Assembly: GCA_964423905.1 (NCBI GenBank)
Contig: CAYRGX010000012.1
Span: 6,994-70,993 of the forward strand
DNA from: an uncultured Leptospirales bacterium
GTDB taxonomy: Bacteria; Spirochaetota; UBA4802; UBA5550
Reading direction: 5' to 3'
DNA length: 64,000 nucleotides
This document shows, one piece after another, positions 4,943-13,033 of the stretch. Numbering within the stretch: the first letter of the stretch is position 1; the number at the start of each line of letters is the position of its first letter. The notes under the pieces are model-generated. The model was not told where the DNA came from. It searched no databases and saw only the letters and a program-made list of their open reading frames with translations. The translations under genes and the position numbers were made by a program.

Positions 4943-5488
4943 TCAGACGGTGATGTCCACCTGGTAGTCGCCGTCACGCATGGTATATCGCACATCGTAC
5001 CCGAGCCCGTTAAGGACATGTCGTATCACGTCGTTGCCGGGATCCATCATGCTCCTGAACGATCTGATACCGTGTTCCTCGCCGATATCCACGATTTTCC
5101 CGAGCAGGATCGTGCCGAGACCGGCACGCTGCCAGTCGTCCCTGACCGCGATCGCAAGGTCGGTGAAGCCTTCGTCTGTGTCGAGGGCGTAGCGCGTCAC
5201 GGCGATCACGGCGTCGCGTCCGCCTTCCCCGACAACCGCGGCAAGCGCGAACTCGCGGTCGTAATCCACGTGCGTCAGGTGATGGAGCAGTTCATCGGGA
5301 AGGGAGGGGATATCGGACAGAAAGCGAAGGTGGACGGAGCGGGCCGAGAGGTGATCGAAAAGCGCCACGAGCAGGGGACCGTCATCGGGGCGTATGGGCC
5401 GGATGAAGACTTCCTTCCCGTTTTTCAGCGTAAGACGCTGCTCGTACCTGGGTGGATACGGCGCATGTTTTTTTCCCGGTTCGCTCAT
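4943..5488 (-). CDS. GNAT N-acetyltransferase (resembles the GNAT domain of Pat/Pka-type acetyltransferases)
   Basis: IRPIRPDD, RFLS, VDYDREFALAA and VRDDWQRAGLGT motifs. Confidence 0.8.
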   Translation of the reverse strand: MSEPGKKHAPYPPRYEQRLTLKNGKEVFIRPIRPDDGPLLVALFDHLSARSVHLRFLSDIPSLPDELLHHLTHVDYDREFALAAVVGEGGRDAVIAVTRYALDTDEGFTDLAIAVRDDWQRAGLGTILLGKIVDIGEEHGIRSFRSMMDPGNDVIRHVLNGLGYDVRYTMRDGDYQVDITV

Positions 5489-5561
5489 CGGACTTTCTGG
5501 TGAATTCACCGCCCTGAACGATTGGAGCATATCCTCGTGCTTCCCGCGAAGTGAACCGCGC

Positions 5562-8012
5562 CTACTTTTCCCTCATTTCGAAGACCCTGTTCCAGTTGGA
5601 GGGGGGCGGGTTCTGCTCGTAGCGTTCGCAGCGTTTCATGAGCACGCGTGCCGCCTCGTCGTGGGGATTCGCATCGATAATTTCCCCCAGCACTATCTTG
5701 GCCTTGGCGAAACGGCGATCCATGTAAATCTGAAGCGCCTGCTCGTATTTGCGGTTTGCCTTGATTATGTTTTCCGGGACTTCATCCGCGAATCCGGAGA
5801 TCTCGTATATGGCGATGGGTTCCTTTTTGCCCTTCACGGTCACGACATCAAGCATGCGCGTCTCCATCCTCCCGCCGAGGAGCTCGTAGGTGAAATGGCT
5901 GCATATGATGCCCGTTCCGTACTGCTTGTTGATTCCCTCGAGTCGGCTGGCCAGGTTGACCGTGTCCCCGATGACCGTGTAGTTGAGCCGCTTGTCCGAC
6001 CCCATGTTGCCCACGATCAATTCGCCGGTGTTGATGCCGAAGCGCGACATGAAAAGGGGGTGCCCCGTCTCCCTCCAGGTGGTCTGGCGCAGAAGGTGGA
6101 GGCGCTTTCTGCAGTCGAGGGCCGCCTTGCAGGCGTAAAACGCGTGGTCCTCGCAGTCGTTCGGCGCGTTCCAGAAGGCCATGATCGCGTCACCGATATA
6201 CTTGTCGATGGTACCGCCGTTGGCGAGGATCACGTCGCTCATCTCGCTCAGATAGCTTCCGAGGTAGCGGACAAGCTCGTCAGGGGTGAGGCTTTCAGAA
6301 ATAGCGGTAAAGTCGGCGATATCGGAAAAATAAACCGTCAGTATCTTGTTCTCACCGCCAAGTTCGGCCTCTGCCCCTGATTGCACGACGAACCGGACCA
6401 CGTCCTGGGGGACATACTTGCTGAACGAGCGTAGCCCGGTCTCCATGTTGTGGAAGGCCTCGCCCATCTGGTTGATCTCGATGAGCCGTGAATCGATCGT
6501 TACGGGTTCACCCAGGTTGAACACGCGAATCTTCTCGGTCTCGTCGACGAGCGTCTTCAGGTTCTGGGTTATGCTCCTGGCGATCCACAGCGCCAGGATG
6601 AACGAAAGCGCCATCATGAAGAGGGATACGATGATAAGAATGAGCGTGTTCTGTTTCGCGATGGCCATAAAATCGTCTTCGGGGATGACGATACCGACGA
6701 TCCACCTGAAGTTGCTGTTCGGGGGGAACGGCGAAAACGACCCGATGTACGGAGTGCCTTTGTAATCGAACCTGAATTGCTTCATTTTTGTCAGGCGGAT
6801 TTCTTTCTTTTCACCGGCTTTACCGCCTTTACCAGTGCCGGCCGGGCTCTCACCCGCGAGACCACTTTTCTGGAAGGACACGCGGTATAGGTCGTTGGGG
6901 CAGTTATGGATGGACGTCAGCTCGAAATCATAGCCGGTTACCTTTCCGGGGTCTTTAGCATCGTTGTGTTTCGGGATCTGCCTGATCAGTTTTGACAGCT
7001 CCTCGCGCGCGAAGGTTTCGCGTTTTACCGGGTCCTTGATGGCCTTCGAGTAGGGATTGTAGGCGATGAGCTCTCCGATCTCGTTGAGCAGGAACACCTT
7101 GCCGTTCGTGCCGACGTTCAGGTTCGCGAGGTATTTCGTGGATATGTCGATTATGCCGATATCGACGCAGTAAATGTAATCGATCTTTTTTTTGCCAAGC
7201 GCGATGGAGCAGGTGATGCCGGGCGTTTCATCGGAGAAGAATACGTATGCGGGGGTCCAGGTGGGCATGCGTTCCCTGCCGGCTTCGATGGCCTCGTTAA
7301 ATTCCCTGACCGCCAGGGAAAACCAGGGCCGCTGGCTGGGGTCATAGGCTCCGGCCGCCGGTTCTATGGCATTGGCATAATTTATCTTTCTGCCCGTTTT
7401 TGGATGTACGTAAGCCGCATTGTAGTACGATTCGTTCTGGTGGTCCCACACGGTGATGAGTACAGGCCCCGCTTTCGTGTTAAACCGCATGCGCCAGGTG
7501 GTGGACAGGCTTCCGTCGTCCATCCTTTTTACCATCGTGAAATCCTTGGAATGGTAGTCGGTCTTGTGGATCTTCGATATCTGCTGGTAGGTGCGGCACA
7601 GATCGGAGGAAAAATCGATGAAGGACGACATGGATTCCATGCGTGGCCTGATCATGGATGCCAGGCGTTCACGGGTAAGCCCATATTTTGAGAGCATCTT
7701 CGAGTCGTAGTACTTGACGGTTTTGCGAGCCTGCGGGCCGAACCCTATCATTCCCGCACCGCGGTTTTTTGCGGACGTGTTAAGGTAAAGAAAATGGCGT
7801 GTCCGGGAGGCCATGGTCGCTGGCTCGAGGAAGTCGAGGGTCTTCTCGGTGACCGACATCGATACGTTATCGATCAGATTGTCCAGGACATTGTTCACGG
7901 AGCTCCTTCCCATGACCACGGAAATGGTGATGAGAATAACGGAGCTAACGAACAGCAGAATTGTAAGGGCGAGAAATATCGTTATGCGAAGGGTAAATCT
8001 GAATTCTTTCAT
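5562..8012 (-). CDS. Class III adenylate cyclase with extracytoplasmic Cache-type domain and HAMP
   Basis: Two TM segments, YDPSQRPWF, HAMP (EINQMGEAFHNM), FSDIADFT, DKYIGDAIMAFWNAP, NYTVIGDTVNLASRLE; TPR-like C-tail. Confidence 0.9.
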   Translation of the reverse strand: MKEFRFTLRITIFLALTILLFVSSVILITISVVMGRSSVNNVLDNLIDNVSMSVTEKTLDFLEPATMASRTRHFLYLNTSAKNRGAGMIGFGPQARKTVKYYDSKMLSKYGLTRERLASMIRPRMESMSSFIDFSSDLCRTYQQISKIHKTDYHSKDFTMVKRMDDGSLSTTWRMRFNTKAGPVLITVWDHQNESYYNAAYVHPKTGRKINYANAIEPAAGAYDPSQRPWFSLAVREFNEAIEAGRERMPTWTPAYVFFSDETPGITCSIALGKKKIDYIYCVDIGIIDISTKYLANLNVGTNGKVFLLNEIGELIAYNPYSKAIKDPVKRETFAREELSKLIRQIPKHNDAKDPGKVTGYDFELTSIHNCPNDLYRVSFQKSGLAGESPAGTGKGGKAGEKKEIRLTKMKQFRFDYKGTPYIGSFSPFPPNSNFRWIVGIVIPEDDFMAIAKQNTLILIIVSLFMMALSFILALWIARSITQNLKTLVDETEKIRVFNLGEPVTIDSRLIEINQMGEAFHNMETGLRSFSKYVPQDVVRFVVQSGAEAELGGENKILTVYFSDIADFTAISESLTPDELVRYLGSYLSEMSDVILANGGTIDKYIGDAIMAFWNAPNDCEDHAFYACKAALDCRKRLHLLRQTTWRETGHPLFMSRFGINTGELIVGNMGSDKRLNYTVIGDTVNLASRLEGINKQYGTGIICSHFTYELLGGRMETRMLDVVTVKGKKEPIAIYEISGFADEVPENIIKANRKYEQALQIYMDRRFAKAKIVLGEIIDANPHDEAARVLMKRCERYEQNPPPSNWNRVFEMREK

Positions 8013-9271
8013 TGTTTCCGTACCGTGTCAGGGGCAGTCGTTTTAACGATTTCCGCAAACTTCAATATGGACACGGGTGGATAAAACTTGAGGCGCTTTG
8101 CCGTTTCCATGTTGACCAAGAACGAATATCGCTTGAGTGTCTCTATATTGATTTTCCCCGGGTTCTTGCCCCCGACGAGTATTTCAACCGCCTTGTAACC
8201 GGCAAACTGCCCCACGTTGTAGTAGTGGCTCACCACCCCCATGAGGGCTCCGCCCTTGATGATCGGGTCCTCCGTGGCGGAAAAGGTTTTTATCCCGAGG
8301 CGATTCAGCTCCTTCATCATGACGGTGGCGTGGGCGATGATGAAAGAATCGGATGGGATATACACGAGCGTAACGCCCTTCGATGCGATCTGCTCGACCA
8401 TGGCCGGCAGCGACGATGCGACTGGTTTTTTGGCATTGTCGAGGGGCAAAGGCGCGCGCACGAGCTCGATGCGGTTTTCACGGCACAGCCATTCGAGCTC
8501 GTCGACCTGCTGGATCGCGTTGTCCTCGGCGGGATTGTAAATGACGCCAATTTTTTTCACGTCGGTTACGGATCGCAGCGCGTTAAACTGGGCATCCATC
8601 GGGACAAGATGCGAGCAGCCGGTCAGGTTCCGGCCCGTCGTAAGAGATGTGTAATCGATCCGAAGAAGAATCTCCTGGAGCCGGGTCTCGGTGCGTTTCG
8701 AGATGCCTTTTACAAGAAGATACGAACGCCCGCGGCTCGCCATCCGGTATGACGAGTTGACGAGCACCCGGTCGCTCTTTTTCTCGAGACGTTCGAGTAT
8801 TTTTTTTTCGAAGACAGGGGCGCTAATTTTCCGCTCGAGCGCGGGGGGCGAGACAAACTTCGAGCCCACCGGTTTCGCTACGATGTTGAAAATGACGGGA
8901 ATGTCGGTGATGAACCTCTCCTTGTCCCGATCGCTATCAAGCCCGACGATGTACTTCGTCGTGGTCGTGCCGAAGGTGTATATCAGGTCTGGACGCTCTT
9001 TCTTGATCTCTGCCATGATGGCGGGCAGCGCGTTCTTGTCGTTTTTACAGTCGCGTATGGTATAGGTCGTGTTGACCTTTTTTTCAGCAAGGTAATCCAT
9101 GAACCCGCGCTCGGCGTCGGTAATACCCCGCCACACCACGAGAAACACCTTGTAGGGATCACGGGATTTTTCAGTGTTCCCGGCGGATGCCGCGATCGGG
9201 AGAAGCATCATGGCGGCGATGGCCACGGCGAGGATAGCCGCTCTGGAAAGGTTTTGCTTGATCGATTTCAT
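8009..9271 (-). CDS. ABC-type solute-binding protein (ABC_sub_bind family) with no ABC permease or ATPase nearby
   Basis: Signal peptide; DLIYTFGTT, IPVIFNIVAKPV, IGVIYNPAEDNA, GQFAGYKAVEILVGGKNPG. Overlaps both neighbours by 4 nt. Confidence 0.8.
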   Translation of the reverse strand: MKSIKQNLSRAAILAVAIAAMMLLPIAASAGNTEKSRDPYKVFLVVWRGITDAERGFMDYLAEKKVNTTYTIRDCKNDKNALPAIMAEIKKERPDLIYTFGTTTTKYIVGLDSDRDKERFITDIPVIFNIVAKPVGSKFVSPPALERKISAPVFEKKILERLEKKSDRVLVNSSYRMASRGRSYLLVKGISKRTETRLQEILLRIDYTSLTTGRNLTGCSHLVPMDAQFNALRSVTDVKKIGVIYNPAEDNAIQQVDELEWLCRENRIELVRAPLPLDNAKKPVASSLPAMVEQIASKGVTLVYIPSDSFIIAHATVMMKELNRLGIKTFSATEDPIIKGGALMGVVSHYYNVGQFAGYKAVEILVGGKNPGKINIETLKRYSFLVNMETAKRLKFYPPVSILKFAEIVKTTAPDTVRKQ

Positions 9272-11376
9272 TTTACTTTTTCCCGATGGTCTAGGATTGA
9301 ATAGGATATCATGAATATGAAGCTCGAAAGGATCGTAAGGATGCCTATGAACGCGATGGCATAGGGAAAGCTTTTCGTTTCGCCGTAGGAAGTCCCGAAA
9401 ATGGCAATCAGGACTCCCGCCACGATCGGTCCGGAGATGTTGCCAAGACGTTCGATCAGGCGATAGATGCCGACCACCGTGGCCATGCCGATGCGGCCGC
9501 CCTCCTCGACGCAGTCATCCGTGATCAGGGCCATCTGCGACGATACCTGTATGGAGTGGGCAACGCCGAGTATGCCGATGCTGAACAGAACGCCTGCCGT
9601 GGTCTGCCAGAAAAGCAACAGAAGAAGGCCGATGCCGGACATGATGCCGCCGATATTGGTAAACGCCCTCCTGAAATGCCACCGGTCCGCCACGGTCCCC
9701 ACCAGCGGGGATACGAATATCATCATGATCCCGTAGCTCATCAGGACTCGGCCTATTGACGATTGGGTATTGCCCAGTTGTTTAAGAAACATGGGCGCCG
9801 CATAGTACAGGAAACCGGTGAGGCATATCTTGGCGGGGATGGATGAAAACAGCGTGATCGACAGGAATTTTTTATTGCCCATGAGCAACTTGAAGTCCTG
9901 TATGCGCATCTTTTTTTTCTGGGCCGAGGCTTCCTTTCTTTGTTCCATGAGGTAGTTCGCCACGAAGAGGGCGGAGAGGAGCGATACCACCGCGGAGATA
10001 AAAAACGTAGTGCGAAAACCGATACGATCCACGAGGATTCCGCCGATGGCGGATCCGCACAACGAGCCCGAGAAGAACCCAGCGAGAAACATGGCCATGC
10101 CCTTGGTGCGGTTCTTCGACGTGGTGTTGTCGGTGATGTAGCCCTGGCAGGTGATGTACACCGTGCCGTATCCGATCGCGGTTATGGACCTCCAGAGAAG
10201 CAGGTCGTACATGGTCTGCGCGAGACCGGTGAGGATAAGGCCCGCCGACGTAAGGATTGCGCCCAGGATGAGGGGTTTGCGTCGGCCGATTTTATCCGAC
10301 CACGCCCCTGCGTACGGGAGCGAGAAGGCCCAGAAGAGCATGAATATGGATATCGGCAACCCGATGACGACGTTTTCGCTTATGCCGGGCACCGGCGTAT
10401 AGAGCTCTCTAACATAAAAGGGAAAAAACGACAGGGAAAGCGAATCCGCGAATATCAGCAGAAACAACGGCGGTCGTATGTAAATGAGACTGTTGAATGC
10501 GGTTTCCTGACGGTTGTCCGGTCCGAAGGTGTAGGTGCTCCGCAGCTTTTCGTAGCGTTTCTTGATTTCGGCGATTTTCGTACGCGCGCCCTTTTTCATC
10601 CGCGCGATCCTGTCCCCGAGTTCGTTGAAAGACCTGTTGATGGAAGTGATGACGTCGTTGAAGGTCTCCATGAAATCGCCGATTTCGTCGTTGGACTTGG
10701 TCTCGGTCAGGTACGAAAAATTCCCCCGCTTTGACCGCACCAGCAGGGCGTGGAGTGCGTTGATGGGCGCGGTTACTCCGTAATTTACGAGAAAGATGAC
10801 CATTTCGAACGAGATCAGGAGCGTGACAACGATTACGGTAATAATATCATATATGATGTCGAGCATCTTGGTGCGGACGTATTTCTTGTCGATGGCCACG
10901 GTAAGCGATCCCATGGTATTGCCGTCGAGAACGATGTTCGAAGTCTGCGTAAAATAATCGGAAGCATCGCCTGATGTTTTCACCGTCTTGGCGGTTTTAT
11001 CCTGCGACTGCGGGGCCGACCGGGTGTCGCGGGGTACATGCCCGGCCTGATAGAGACGGTGTTTCTGCATGTCGGTTATGATGATATAGGTTATCTCGGG
11101 ATTGTCTTTGATCACTGATGAAAGATATACTTCCATGCCGGTCAGCGACGTGAAGGGGACACCGTACCCGACTATTTTGCCCACGAGCGACTTGATGGAA
11201 TCGCTGATGACCACCGCCTTCTTGTCCATCTCGGGGACGATCGCCTTTTCGAAGCCTTTCAGCGCCACGTACGACATGGAAGCGGTGGAAATCAGGACCA
11301 GGGCAATGGTCGCAATGAAGATGCGGTTGTTGAAGCTCAGGTATTTTTTACTTTTTTCTGGCATGTTTTTTTGCAC
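9268..11376 (-). CDS. Fusion of TM-periplasmic sensor-TM-HAMP to a 12-TM MFS transporter
   Basis: N-terminal TM, ~130-aa extracytoplasmic domain, HAMP (APINALH...SNDEIGDFMETFN), then MFS motif A (GAWSDKIGRRK; GTVADRWHFRR). Confidence 0.85.
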   Translation of the reverse strand: MQKNMPEKSKKYLSFNNRIFIATIALVLISTASMSYVALKGFEKAIVPEMDKKAVVISDSIKSLVGKIVGYGVPFTSLTGMEVYLSSVIKDNPEITYIIITDMQKHRLYQAGHVPRDTRSAPQSQDKTAKTVKTSGDASDYFTQTSNIVLDGNTMGSLTVAIDKKYVRTKMLDIIYDIITVIVVTLLISFEMVIFLVNYGVTAPINALHALLVRSKRGNFSYLTETKSNDEIGDFMETFNDVITSINRSFNELGDRIARMKKGARTKIAEIKKRYEKLRSTYTFGPDNRQETAFNSLIYIRPPLFLLIFADSLSLSFFPFYVRELYTPVPGISENVVIGLPISIFMLFWAFSLPYAGAWSDKIGRRKPLILGAILTSAGLILTGLAQTMYDLLLWRSITAIGYGTVYITCQGYITDNTTSKNRTKGMAMFLAGFFSGSLCGSAIGGILVDRIGFRTTFFISAVVSLLSALFVANYLMEQRKEASAQKKKMRIQDFKLLMGNKKFLSITLFSSIPAKICLTGFLYYAAPMFLKQLGNTQSSIGRVLMSYGIMMIFVSPLVGTVADRWHFRRAFTNIGGIMSGIGLLLLLFWQTTAGVLFSIGILGVAHSIQVSSQMALITDDCVEEGGRIGMATVVGIYRLIERLGNISGPIVAGVLIAIFGTSYGETKSFPYAIAFIGILTILSSFIFMISYSILDHREKVK

Positions 11377-12250
11377 CTTTTCCGGCAGGTTTTGCAGACT
11401 TTCCGGCAGTTTTCGCGCCCCTGCCGGCCGGTTTTGCGTCCTTTCCGGTTGAATCTATTCGTTCGCCGATATCAGATATTTCATCCATGGCACGCGATAC
11501 GGTTCCCGAAAACTCGGCGAAATCGAGTTCCATGCCGTAGTGGGGTCCCGGGAGCGCGGCGCTCTCCCTGCGGGCAAGCAGTCCCTTCAGGGATTCGTTC
11601 ATCCCCACGATTTTATGGTTCAGTGAACGTGAAATGAGATGAACCGCGGCAAATGTTATCGCAGAGAACAGCAACAACGTCACAATAAAAAGAACAAGAA
11701 GATATATCAGTATACCCTGCATCGGTCGCGATATGATTGTCCTTGGATATGCCAGCGCCACCGAACCGACCCTGAGACCGAAGCTGTTGACGATGGGAAG
11801 AATGATATACGCGCGGTCGCCCAGAACGACTGTCGAGGTTCTTTCTTCGGTTTTTTTTGATTTCGAGACATGGTCGTGTTTTCTCATCGCGGCGATCAGG
11901 CTCGGGGACTCGGTTTTTCCCAGCCTGCCGGAATCCGTTCCGAAAAGGATGCGCCCCTTCTCGTCACAGACTTCCACCTCGGCGATGGCCGCGTCCTTTT
12001 TTTTCTGCTCCTCGGCGAACACCTGGATGTTTTTCATCTCCGGCAGGGCGAGACCCAGGTTCAGCTGGTATTCGATCGTGTTCTTGATATCCTTTCCCGC
12101 TACGTAGAACCGCGATGAAACCAGGTCGCCGTATGTTTTTTCGAAATTGAAAAAATTCAGGAGGAGGTTCAGTATGAGTGAAAAAACCAGGACAATGATC
12201 AGGATTATAGAAATTTTAAATGAGAAACGTTCCGTGAACCTGTTACCCAT
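11348..12250 (-). CDS. 2-TM extracytoplasmic sensor-like protein with degenerate HAMP and no output domain
   Basis: TM1-FEK-LGLALPEM-Cache-like-TM2; Lys/Ala-rich repeat tail; overlaps the MFS gene by 29 nt. Confidence 0.7.
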   Translation of the reverse strand: MGNRFTERFSFKISIILIIVLVFSLILNLLLNFFNFEKTYGDLVSSRFYVAGKDIKNTIEYQLNLGLALPEMKNIQVFAEEQKKKDAAIAEVEVCDEKGRILFGTDSGRLGKTESPSLIAAMRKHDHVSKSKKTEERTSTVVLGDRAYIILPIVNSFGLRVGSVALAYPRTIISRPMQGILIYLLVLFIVTLLLFSAITFAAVHLISRSLNHKIVGMNESLKGLLARRESAALPGPHYGMELDFAEFSGTVSRAMDEISDIGERIDSTGKDAKPAGRGAKTAGKSAKPAGKGAKKHARKK

Positions 12251-12638
12251 GGGTTACCGTCCGAAAGTGATACGTTTTATTGCAATGAAGCGGCTTATTT
12301 CTATTTACTAGTATCGGTATTAATTGTACACCTGTCAATGATAAATTCTTATATCCTCCCATCCGGGCGGAATAAACCGAATATCGGGCCTGGTGTTAGT
12401 GGCTGTTGAATCCCGCATGTTTTTTACGTGATGAATTATGCTCTCAAGGAGCGGCATGAAGGTCTAATGTGTCACTCGTGAGTGATTTCAAGTGCCTGGA
12501 ACGAATTGAGAATATGGCTGGATATGTTTCATTGCTGATATTGCATAACGTAGTTGACGGGCCACATGATCGATATGGGTGATCATGTCCGGTGCAGAAG
12601 CTTCGGCCGGATTATGTTGAATGCCATGTTCCGGTTGT

Positions 12639-13033
12639 TTAGCCGATGATTACCGAGCCGTCCGGGAAAACCAACACCCGGGTGCCGTCTGTCACCTCGT
12701 CTAAAAACGCGGGACCGAGCCTGTCGACGGTTTTTTCAAGAAGGCCGCAGGGCATTTTTTATAATCGAGGGGGCGGGGATCGGCGGTGAAGGGGCGCGGT
12801 GCGACGAGGCCCTCGCGGACGAGGTCGTCCATCAGCGAGAAAATGGGCTTCAGCATCGGGACGCCCACCGAGGTGACGATATGGCTGTCGTGGTCCAGCG
12901 GTGCAAGGCGGCCGGCGCCGAAGATCTCGCCATAACGAACGACTGATTCCATGGCTTTGCGGAGAACATCTCCCCGTGACCCGTCAAGTATCGCGCGCTC
13001 CTCACCGGTCAGGTTCATCGTGAATCGCGTCAT
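12639..13033 (-). pseudogene. Aconitase X (DUF521-DUF126 fusion type) remnant with a large internal deletion and a frameshift
   Basis: MNLTGEERAILDGSRG...AMESVVRYGEIFGA...FTADPRPLDY. A shift at the A6 run near 12755-12760 gives MPCGLLEK followed by TVDRLGPAFLDEVTDGTRVLVFPDGSVIIG*, resembling a swivel-domain C-terminus. Confidence 0.6.

Follow-up and report, generated by a model that had tools for sequence, protein, structure and literature searches.

The question raised by this locus is what a transporter of the major facilitator superfamily (MFS) is doing behind a receptor module. In a 64,000-nucleotide (nt) stretch of DNA from an uncultured Leptospirales bacterium (assembly GCA_964423905.1, contig CAYRGX010000012.1, positions 6,994 to 70,993 of the forward strand; hereafter the window), four overlapping genes encode a membrane-bound sensor with no output domain (g1), an MFS protein with a sensor and a HAMP domain at its N terminus (g2), a periplasmic solute-binding protein (g3), and an adenylate cyclase (g4). 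An earlier note, made from the letters of the sequence, had taken them for one four-gene unit. Our comparison of related loci points to a smaller unit, the trio g1-g2-g3, which we read as an MFS transporter that is gated through HAMP under the control of a binding protein, the cyclase being a partner expressed along with it, and we give this reading an even chance of being correct. The four genes are as follows.

11348-12250, minus strand: g1 (P0001), open reading frame (ORF) of 300 amino acids (aa)
9268-11376, minus strand: g2 (P0002), ORF of 702 aa from the GTG codon at 11376, or of 698 aa from the ATG codon at 11364
8009-9271, minus strand: g3 (P0003), ORF of 420 aa
5562-8012, minus strand: g4 (P0004), ORF of 816 aa

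The four ORFs overlap as the earlier note had described. The g2/g3 and g3/g4 junctions are both ATGA overlaps of 4 nt each, the lengths given in that note, and its third value, 29 nt for g1/g2, depends on the start codon of g2, since the overlap is 29 nt with GTG 11376 and 17 nt with ATG 11364. An AAGGTG sequence is located 9 nt before ATG 11364, and the database gene call (698 aa) agrees with this codon, which is the more likely start of g2.

Conservation of the g1-g2-g3 trio

More than 250 full-length homologs of g2, mostly 650-720 aa long, were found in a word-indexed search; their annotation goes no further than 'MFS transporter' or 'MFS permease/HAMP domain-containing protein'. We fetched 80 genomic loci that span at least six phyla, with members from Spirochaetota, Thermodesulfobacteriota (Desulfobacula), Planctomycetota, Fibrobacterota, and many Beta- and Gammaproteobacteria, a sample biased towards sequenced Vibrio and Oceanospirillum, and homologs of g1 and g3 in these loci were sought by tblastn and profile hidden Markov models. 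A g1 homolog was located directly upstream of g2, or fused to it, in 79 of the 80 loci, and a g3 homolog directly downstream of g2 in 77, two of the three exceptions being contig ends. The order of the three genes was constant, and the median g1/g2 and g2/g3 junctions were both -4 nt. Judged by its recurrence across several phyla, this arrangement is far beyond chance. When a profile of the g2 sensor module was used, 306 clusters (50% identity) were obtained at E<=1e-30, and nearly all of the best 150 of these 306 had the length of an MFS fusion (640-760 aa) or were longer (820-1005 aa), suggesting that the module is essentially dedicated to MFS output.

The relationship between g1 and g2 is further illustrated by natural fusions. 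A single ORF (~850-970 aa) encodes both in 24 Vibrio/Motilimonas loci, in Thiobaca and Achromatium, and in one gammaproteobacterial metagenome-assembled genome. In the fused proteins, the g1 profile gave the highest score for the first module (A) and the g2 profile for the second (B), and therefore these proteins are true g1+g2 fusions rather than duplications. In a tree of the g2 core, at least four changes in fusion state were needed, and at least 13 of the best 150 database representatives have the fused length. An AlphaFold 2 (AF2) model of the Vibrio coralliilyticus fusion (849 residues) was calculated with the g1 rows left out of the alignment, because MAFFT had set them on the second module. 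It contained a tandem pair of sCache modules together with a HAMP hairpin and an MFS domain of 12 transmembrane (TM) helices, with a predicted local distance difference test score (pLDDT) of 84.5 and a predicted TM-score (pTM) of 0.80; the high pTM of the fused chain suggests a defined mutual arrangement of the domains. Such fusions, of the 'Rosetta stone' type and with several independent origins, provide the strongest computational support for g1 and g2 being one physical receptor, and they argue strongly that the two form one pseudo-dimeric receptor.

The earlier note had placed g1, g2, and g3 in one membrane complex, and this proposal gained support from strict synteny and translational coupling across phyla, from paralogy, and from the fusions. 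The contrary possibility is that the four genes form no functional unit and encode independent membrane or periplasmic proteins that share an operon by chance. This would fit the patchy distribution and distinct composition of the operon, which may be a recent mosaic, but it fits only the fourth gene, which accompanies the trio in no more than a small clade, and for g1-g2-g3 it is excluded by gene order, overlaps, paralogy, and repeated fusion across phyla. We therefore consider it highly improbable.

The paired sensors, the MFS domain, and the binding protein

The g1 protein consists of a first TM helix (TM1, residues ~13-31), a periplasmic sCache/PDC-like domain, a second TM helix (TM2, ~180-198), a HAMP-like helical hairpin (~205-270), and a tail. 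A Pfam search of g1 gave no match. Homology to the N-terminal module of g2 was detected by BLASTP (E 4e-4, from the shared FEK) and by hhalign against the g2 N terminus (98.6% probability, E 1.1e-15, 211 columns), and g1 is collinear with g2 residues 42-265, which agrees with the earlier description of g1 as having a module like that of g2 and no output domain. The AF2 model of g1 (pLDDT 85.8) has a long TM1 helix, a small sensor domain of helices and beta-sheet, and a TM2 helix that is again long; another helix in the cytoplasm and a tail without order come after it, and a helix-loop-helix is predicted after TM2 (helices 171-230 and 240-270). In a Foldseek search with this model, the top matches were the TM-sCache-TM-HAMP region of WalK and the sensor domains of WalK, DcuS, and CitA. 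The best fold match was WalK (YycG; 9a5d, over 284 columns), whose extracellular domain gave a target-normalized TM-score of 0.77 and a root-mean-square deviation of 2.4 A at ~14% identity. WalK is also controlled by accessory extracytoplasmic proteins (YycH/YycI), which are unrelated to the partners in the trio; however, WalK has a DHp/catalytic kinase domain, whereas no kinase domain (HisKA DHp or HATPase_c) was found in g1 or g2.

The tail of g1 (window 11351-11449, residues ~268-300) is repetitive and rich in Lys, Ala, and Gly (..GKDAKPAGRGAKTAGKSAKPAGKGAKKHARKK), is predicted to be disordered, and is missing from all g1 homologs. The long g1/g2 overlap is due to this tail.

Three parts can be distinguished in g2.

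10777-11376, minus strand: sensor module, residues 1-200, with TM1 (19-37), an sCache_3-like periplasmic domain, and TM2 (178-196), by hydropathy
10612-10776, minus strand: HAMP domain, residues ~201-255, with P204 in the first amphipathic sequence (AS1), G218 in the connector, and DEIG (231-234) and FN (239-240) in the second (AS2)
9292-10491, minus strand: MFS domain, residues ~296-695, with 12 TM helices, DHA1-like

The presence of a full TM-periplasmic-TM-HAMP module at the N terminus of the MFS protein, as proposed in the earlier note, was upheld by the MFS_1 match, the HAMP signature, and support at the level of the family. The sCache_3_2 domain was matched in 7 of 20 members of the g2 family (best E 3.4e-7). 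The g2 N terminus also matched the sensor part of NCBIfam NF053592 (E 1.6e-9; 37.7 bits against a curated cut-off of 194), a kinase family that takes its name from a YfiR-like partner in the periplasm, and of which only the N-terminal sensor region matches g2. HAMP matches at E<0.01 were found in 6 of the 20 members (best 7.9e-6), and the g2 family profile matched the HAMP-GCN4 kinase chimera 9trk in the PDB (E 9.6e-6). The domain is located directly after TM2, P204 is invariant, and G218, DEIG 231-234, and FN 239-240 are present; in the AF2 model of the Vibrio homolog, TM2 leads into a helix, a loop, and a second helix, which are followed by the MFS domain. A Glu residue within TM2 of the sensor module, E191 (window 10804-10806; motif FE[LM], just before the HAMP domain), is invariant and is a candidate proton- or partner-sensing residue. 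In the family alignments D177 is also invariant and T180 nearly so.

The MFS domain of g2 scored 161.6 bits with MFS_1 (cut-off 33.4). The family conserves motif A (GAWSDKIGRRK) and motif B (LLLWRS..GYG), and it has a motif C-like sequence of the antiporter type (GSLCGSAIGG). An acidic residue in TM1, K516, H607, and an RLIERxGN loop are invariant or nearly so in the family, and R396 is located in TM4. The family profile matched EmrB, NorA, VMAT, and YajR in the PDB, and a Foldseek search with the model of the Vibrio homolog returned VMAT2, NorA, MdfA, and SotB with target-normalized TM-scores of 0.75-0.88. Because the motifs and the charged TM residues are kept, the conservation pattern argues for the MFS domain being a working alternating-access carrier. 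The direction of transport we infer only from the nearest relatives, which are proton antiporters or exporters, those with solved structures being DHA1/DHA2 antiporters.

The g3 protein is a secreted member of PF04392 (ABC_sub_bind, TrpX-like; 94.1 bits against a cut-off of 25.9), has a signal peptide ending in AASA/G, and has 3lkv, 3lft, and 6hni as relatives in the PDB. Its score with the NCBIfam TrpX equivalog, 94, is far below the cut-off of 390, and therefore it is not TrpX itself. The earlier note had remarked that this binding protein has no permease or ATPase partner of the ATP-binding cassette (ABC) type, and this was confirmed, since none was found within ~5 kb of the operon and the genome, which is 89% complete, has no PF04392 protein other than g3. 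ABC genes adjoining the trio were likewise not seen in the representative related loci examined. An insert of ~70 residues in g3 (~142-211, window 8639-8848) is shared only with the Leptospirales homolog L001 and is absent from all other g3 homologs and from the solved PF04392 structures.

In the reading that we favor, the core of the system would be a three-protein inner-membrane machine. In this machine, g1 and the N-terminal half of g2, as paralogous WalK-like modules (TM, sCache, TM, helical hairpin), would pair into a pseudo-dimeric receptor, and g3, instead of being part of an ABC importer, would be a co-receptor of its own in the periplasm, binding the ligand and docking on the sCache pair of g1 and g2 in the way that LuxP docks on LuxQ. 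Ligand occupancy could then be passed through TM2, with its invariant E191, and the HAMP domain of g2 to the covalently attached DHA1-like MFS domain, so that a proton-coupled transporter, in all likelihood an exporter or antiporter, would be turned on or off by an external ligand. In every characterized HAMP protein, the domain is located between a transmembrane input and a C-terminal output, and because this sensor-to-HAMP-to-output polarity is universal, we infer the same direction of signal flow in g2.

A different role for the same three proteins would be that of a binding-protein-dependent MFS importer, a third tripartite kind beside TRAP and TTT, in which g3 captures the substrate and hands it to the MFS domain of g2, the sensor domains of g1 and g2 serve as a docking platform, and the HAMP domain only couples docking to opening of the gate. 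The g3 gene is adjacent to g2 and translationally coupled with it, with no ABC partner, the trio shares the logic of TRAP and TTT (binding protein, small membrane protein, large transporter), and the PF04392 relatives of g3 (3lft, 3lkv, TrpX) bind amino acids for uptake; in some loci, moreover, a second binding-protein gene (TAXI/NMT1_3 or SBP_bac_3-like) is located beside the trio. However, the closest relatives of the MFS domain in sequence and fold are proton antiporters and exporters (EmrB, NorA, MdfA, VMAT, and SotB), with an antiporter-type motif C, and sCache-TM-HAMP is a signaling module that no known binding-protein-dependent transporter carries. In addition, the periplasmic sCache pair would flank the MFS pore and not cover it. 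We regard an importer of this kind as unlikely.

The variable fourth gene and the neighbors of the trio

The g4 protein contains a TM helix, a dCache_1-like periplasmic domain (~30-450), a second TM helix, a HAMP domain (476-523), a class IIIb cyclase domain (558-736), and a TPR-like tail. Its Pfam matches (Guanylate_cyc, 75.6 bits against a cut-off of 21.9; dCache_1, E 3e-7; HAMP, 20.7 bits) bear out the earlier description of a cyclase with Cache and HAMP domains of its own. The catalytic domain matched solved cyclases, including Pseudomonas aeruginosa CyaB (3r5g) and cyanobacterial ones, at E 1e-38 to 1e-36, and the g4 sequences FSDIADFT, IDKYIGD, and NYTVIGDTVNLASRLE align with catalytic motifs of CyaB (3r5g) and of the bacteriophytochrome-adenylate cyclase chimera 6fht. 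Both metal Asp residues, the class IIIb Lys/Thr substrate pair, and the Asn/Arg pair are kept, the residue roles being those established for class III cyclases. It is likely that g4 is a catalytically competent adenylate cyclase with its own sensor, an ordinary member of the class IIIb Cache-HAMP (CyaB-like) cyclases that is unusual only in its 4-nt overlap with the binding-protein gene of the trio.

The neighbors of the HAMP-MFS genes were tabulated, as the earlier note had suggested, with annotation taken from representatives of sequence clusters, and it was found that the binding protein and the sensor persist while the enzyme swaps among a dCache-HAMP cyclase, a TPR-cyclase, a dCache-HAMP-SpoIIE-HATPase protein, and a 5TMR-LYT-SpoIIE protein. 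Only two loci, L001 (Leptospirales) and L015 (Spirochaetota), have a dCache-HAMP cyclase orthologous to g4 behind g3, with 58% and 42% identity, respectively. In L015 the MFS gene (7983-11336; P0065, 1117 aa) encodes ~420 additional cytoplasmic residues at the C terminus, which match DUF5939 in part (E 4e-18), a domain typical of cyclase N termini, and this extended HAMP-MFS gene is followed by g3 and then by the g4-orthologous cyclase. A 608-aa dCache-HAMP cyclase is encoded upstream of g1 in Sulfuriflexus (L013), and the same type of cyclase is encoded two genes downstream in three Chitinimonas genomes. L017 has a TPR-cyclase gene upstream of the trio and a dCache-HAMP-SpoIIE-HATPase_c_2 gene that overlaps g3 by 4 nt, and a 5TMR-LYT-SpoIIE gene is located upstream of the trio in Fibrobacterota. 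Altogether, a cyclase adjoins the trio in 3 of the 80 loci besides the window and is nearby in 5 more. For such rare genes, five different arrangements with cyclic AMP (cAMP)- or PP2C-type enzymes are far more than chance would give.

The four-gene unit of the earlier note was rejected, because the fourth gene differs in most loci and the conserved unit is g1-g2-g3. We also abandoned the notion that the partner enzymes descend from a single dCache protein whose output had been exchanged, since no specific similarity was found between the periplasmic part of the window cyclase and those of the L017 SpoIIE protein and the L013 cyclase. Nor did coupling of the transport state to cAMP, the other part of the earlier proposal, find support as a general feature, as most loci have no signaling enzyme at all by the trio; with few loci carrying a cyclase and no common sensor domain among the partners, such coupling would be at best a lineage-specific elaboration. 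In our favored reading, g4 would be a separately sensing cyclase that was recruited in the lineage of the window and gives a cAMP read-out of the same niche, and it may or may not touch the trio physically.

In 35 of the 80 loci the trio is located next to or inside an operon for a type VI secretion system (T6SS), with tssF and tssG just upstream, and the order in Vibrio is tssF, tssG, clpV, g1g2, g3, an SBP_bac_3-like gene, fha, tssJ, tssK, and two further ORFs. In V. coralliilyticus ATCC BAA-450 (L055:1849-17780) the T6SS operon is uninterrupted around g1g2 and g3, with gaps of 0-50 nt, and the same was observed in L048-L071, L075, and L079. An unfused trio follows tssF/tssG in L022, L025, L028, L031, L034, L035, L037, L040, L045, and L046 (Oceanospirillaceae/Oleiphilus) and in L004 and L008. 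A gene for a TAXI-type (NMT1_3) binding protein is located directly before g1 in the Oceanospirillaceae-type loci and L008, and therefore these T6SS-linked loci, like those of Vibrio, encode one more binding protein of the periplasm; L004 differs in that the strand opposite to the trio carries the gene preceding g1. In about half of the loci all neighbors are unrelated, such as genes for DapB, a HisA-like protein, DNA polymerase III tau, glycerate kinase, or lanthipeptide and radical-SAM functions. In L006, L009, L010, L011, L026, L018, and L042 (Oxalobacteraceae/Iodobacter), genes for a RamC-like lanthipeptide synthetase, radical-SAM proteins, and TolC-like (OEP) proteins are located downstream of the trio, after gaps of ~40-620 nt and in subsets that vary by locus, and the trio may be linked to the export of peptide natural products in these bacteria.

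These neighbors bear on a further explanation, in which the trio is purely a signaling complex, or 'transceptor', and the MFS domain, like UhpC or Rgt2/Snf3, is a scaffold that does not transport or that senses substrate, and the trio relays to the g4 cyclase in the window, to SpoIIE phosphatases elsewhere, and to the Fha/T6SS machinery in Vibrio. The five arrangements of class III cyclases or SpoIIE phosphatases by the trio would be expected from such a relay, as would the gene overlap in L017, which is the same as that of the window cyclase, the DUF5939 extension on the L015 MFS protein, and the T6SS loci, in which the Vibrio genes are located between clpV and fha. On the other hand, approximately half of the loci, mostly from Betaproteobacteria, have no signaling enzyme or T6SS gene nearby, and the partner enzymes have sensor domains of their own that are mutually unrelated. 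MFS motifs A and B and the charged TM residues are strongly constrained, as for a working transporter, and the HAMP domain is upstream of the MFS domain, which places the latter as output and not as input. A complex devoted to signaling seems to us to have a low probability.

Several observations nevertheless weigh against a HAMP-gated transporter. The Pfam HAMP match of g2 itself (18.6 bits, E 0.0023) is below the cut-off of 25 bits. The hairpin of g1 has no HAMP match in Pfam and neither the Pro nor the DExG signature, and it is reduced to ~25-45 residues in the Vibrio fusions. Because this hairpin has no HAMP signature and is nearly lost in Vibrio, a canonical four-helix heterodimeric HAMP domain is doubtful, and the complex could instead be a dimer of heteromers. 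Of the 'HAMP heterodimer' of the earlier note, the pairing of g1 with g2 would predict the paralogy and the fusions that were observed, and the HAMP part is uncertain. The linker between the HAMP domain and the first TM helix of the MFS domain varies in length and sequence across the family, which is unusual for rigid helical signal transmission, and likeness to DHA1 proteins leaves the transport direction unfixed. Finally, given the frequent adjacency to signaling enzymes and T6SS genes, the real output may be signaling rather than transport.

The surroundings of the operon suggest how it came to its present position. The window from 5000 to 13000 has a G+C content of 50-59% (53-56% in the four genes), compared with 60-65% in both flanks. 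In 24 genomes that belong to the taxonomic family of the window no member of the g2 family is present, and a search for paralogs in the genome of the window found none. The genes other than the operon within ~5 kb encode GNAT, DUF3795, M28 peptidase, an AcnX fragment, DUF6937/6938, and GalK. The AcnX fragment, a short frame at 12701-13033, encodes only the first ~90 residues of aconitase X followed by a stop codon, and this remnant at the upstream border of the operon may be an insertion scar. The dip in G+C content, the truncated AcnX gene, and the absence from the 24 genomes together suggest that the operon was acquired horizontally.

The following site was obtained from a consensus scan.

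12310-12338, minus strand: promoter-like site, TTGACA-17 nt-GATACT, with 10 of 12 consensus matches, a pattern match only

This sigma-70-like site is ~60 nt upstream of the start codon of g1, inside an AT-richer intergenic spacer of 450 nt. A terminator scan gave no convincing end of the operon. The gene for the GNAT acetyltransferase (4943-5530, minus strand) has the same orientation as the cyclase gene and starts 31 nt past its stop codon, so that the operon may have a fifth cistron; GNAT genes are also located 3' of g3 in L007 of Fibrobacterota, by Pfam, and in L005, by sequence clustering.

Comparison with known systems and significance

Several established systems resemble the trio in part. 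In LuxP-LuxQ and TorT-TorS, as in the trio, a dedicated periplasmic binding protein accompanies a PDC/Cache receptor with no ABC transporter, and TM helices would be expected to carry the signal to a module in the cytoplasm. However, the output in these systems is a kinase and the receptor is a homodimer, whereas the trio has an MFS transporter as output and two paralogous chains, or one fused chain, as receptor; its binding protein belongs to PF04392 and is not of the LuxP or TorT type, and docking is proposed from synteny and translational coupling. TRAP (DctPQM) and TTT (TctCBA) transporters have the same tripartite gene logic with no ATPase, but no component is homologous, since no DctQM/TctAB or DctP/TctC matches were found by Pfam in g1-g3. 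In the trio, unlike these transporters, the small subunit is a sensor paralog that has a Cache domain in the periplasm, HAMP is among the domains, and the MFS domain is DHA1-like. Sd-Amt1 (Amt-HAMP-GGDEF; PMC11152129), CbrA, and UhpC/UhpB also combine a transporter fold with a HAMP or signaling module in one protein or complex; in these the transporter is the input upstream of the HAMP domain and an enzyme is the output, whereas the polarity of g2 is reversed. NorA, MdfA, SotB, VMAT, and Escherichia coli YajR share with g2 the 12-TM MFS fold and motifs A and B, but the DHA1 antiporters and YajR have neither an N-terminal TM-sCache-TM-HAMP module nor a dedicated binding protein, both of which g2 has.

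The literature was searched for fusions of HAMP and MFS domains, for PF04392 in signaling, and for an MFS or binding protein in Vibrio T6SS clusters, and no description was found. A study of V. fluvialis only names, as flanking VflT6SS1 at its border, an 'ABC-type periplasmic component and MFS transporter', and these genes appear to be of the same kinds as g1g2 and g3; a study of the V. coralliilyticus T6SS makes no mention of the fused g1g2 or of g3. The components of the system (sCache, HAMP, DHA1-like MFS, PF04392, class IIIb cyclase) are ordinary, and the wiring is not. The trio is a widespread family for which we found no description, and a HAMP domain with a transporter as output would be new in kind. 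To our knowledge, HAMP domains relay to kinases, chemoreceptor tips, cyclases, and phosphatases and not to carriers, and we know of no MFS carrier that is run by a receptor or depends on a binding protein. We therefore propose, tentatively and with a confidence that falls somewhat short of even, that the trio is the first receptor-type module with a secondary transporter as its output, in which a hetero-pseudo-dimeric sCache-TM-HAMP receptor reads its own periplasmic binding protein and allosterically gates the MFS carrier covalently joined to it, and that it serves as a hitherto unrecognized T6SS accessory unit for sensing or transport in Vibrio and Oceanospirillaceae and is paired with a receptor that makes cAMP in Spirochaetota-type lineages.

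If this proposal is true, an external ligand would be coupled directly to transport with no kinase in between, and secondary transporters linked to a binding protein would gain a third family. The proposal would also account for a group of PF04392 binding proteins that look like 'orphans' and for several hundred genes whose only annotation is 'MFS transporter'. The position between clpV and fha in the Vibrio T6SS operons offers a concrete and genetically tractable phenotype, and the natural g1-g2 fusions are ready single-chain targets for structure determination.

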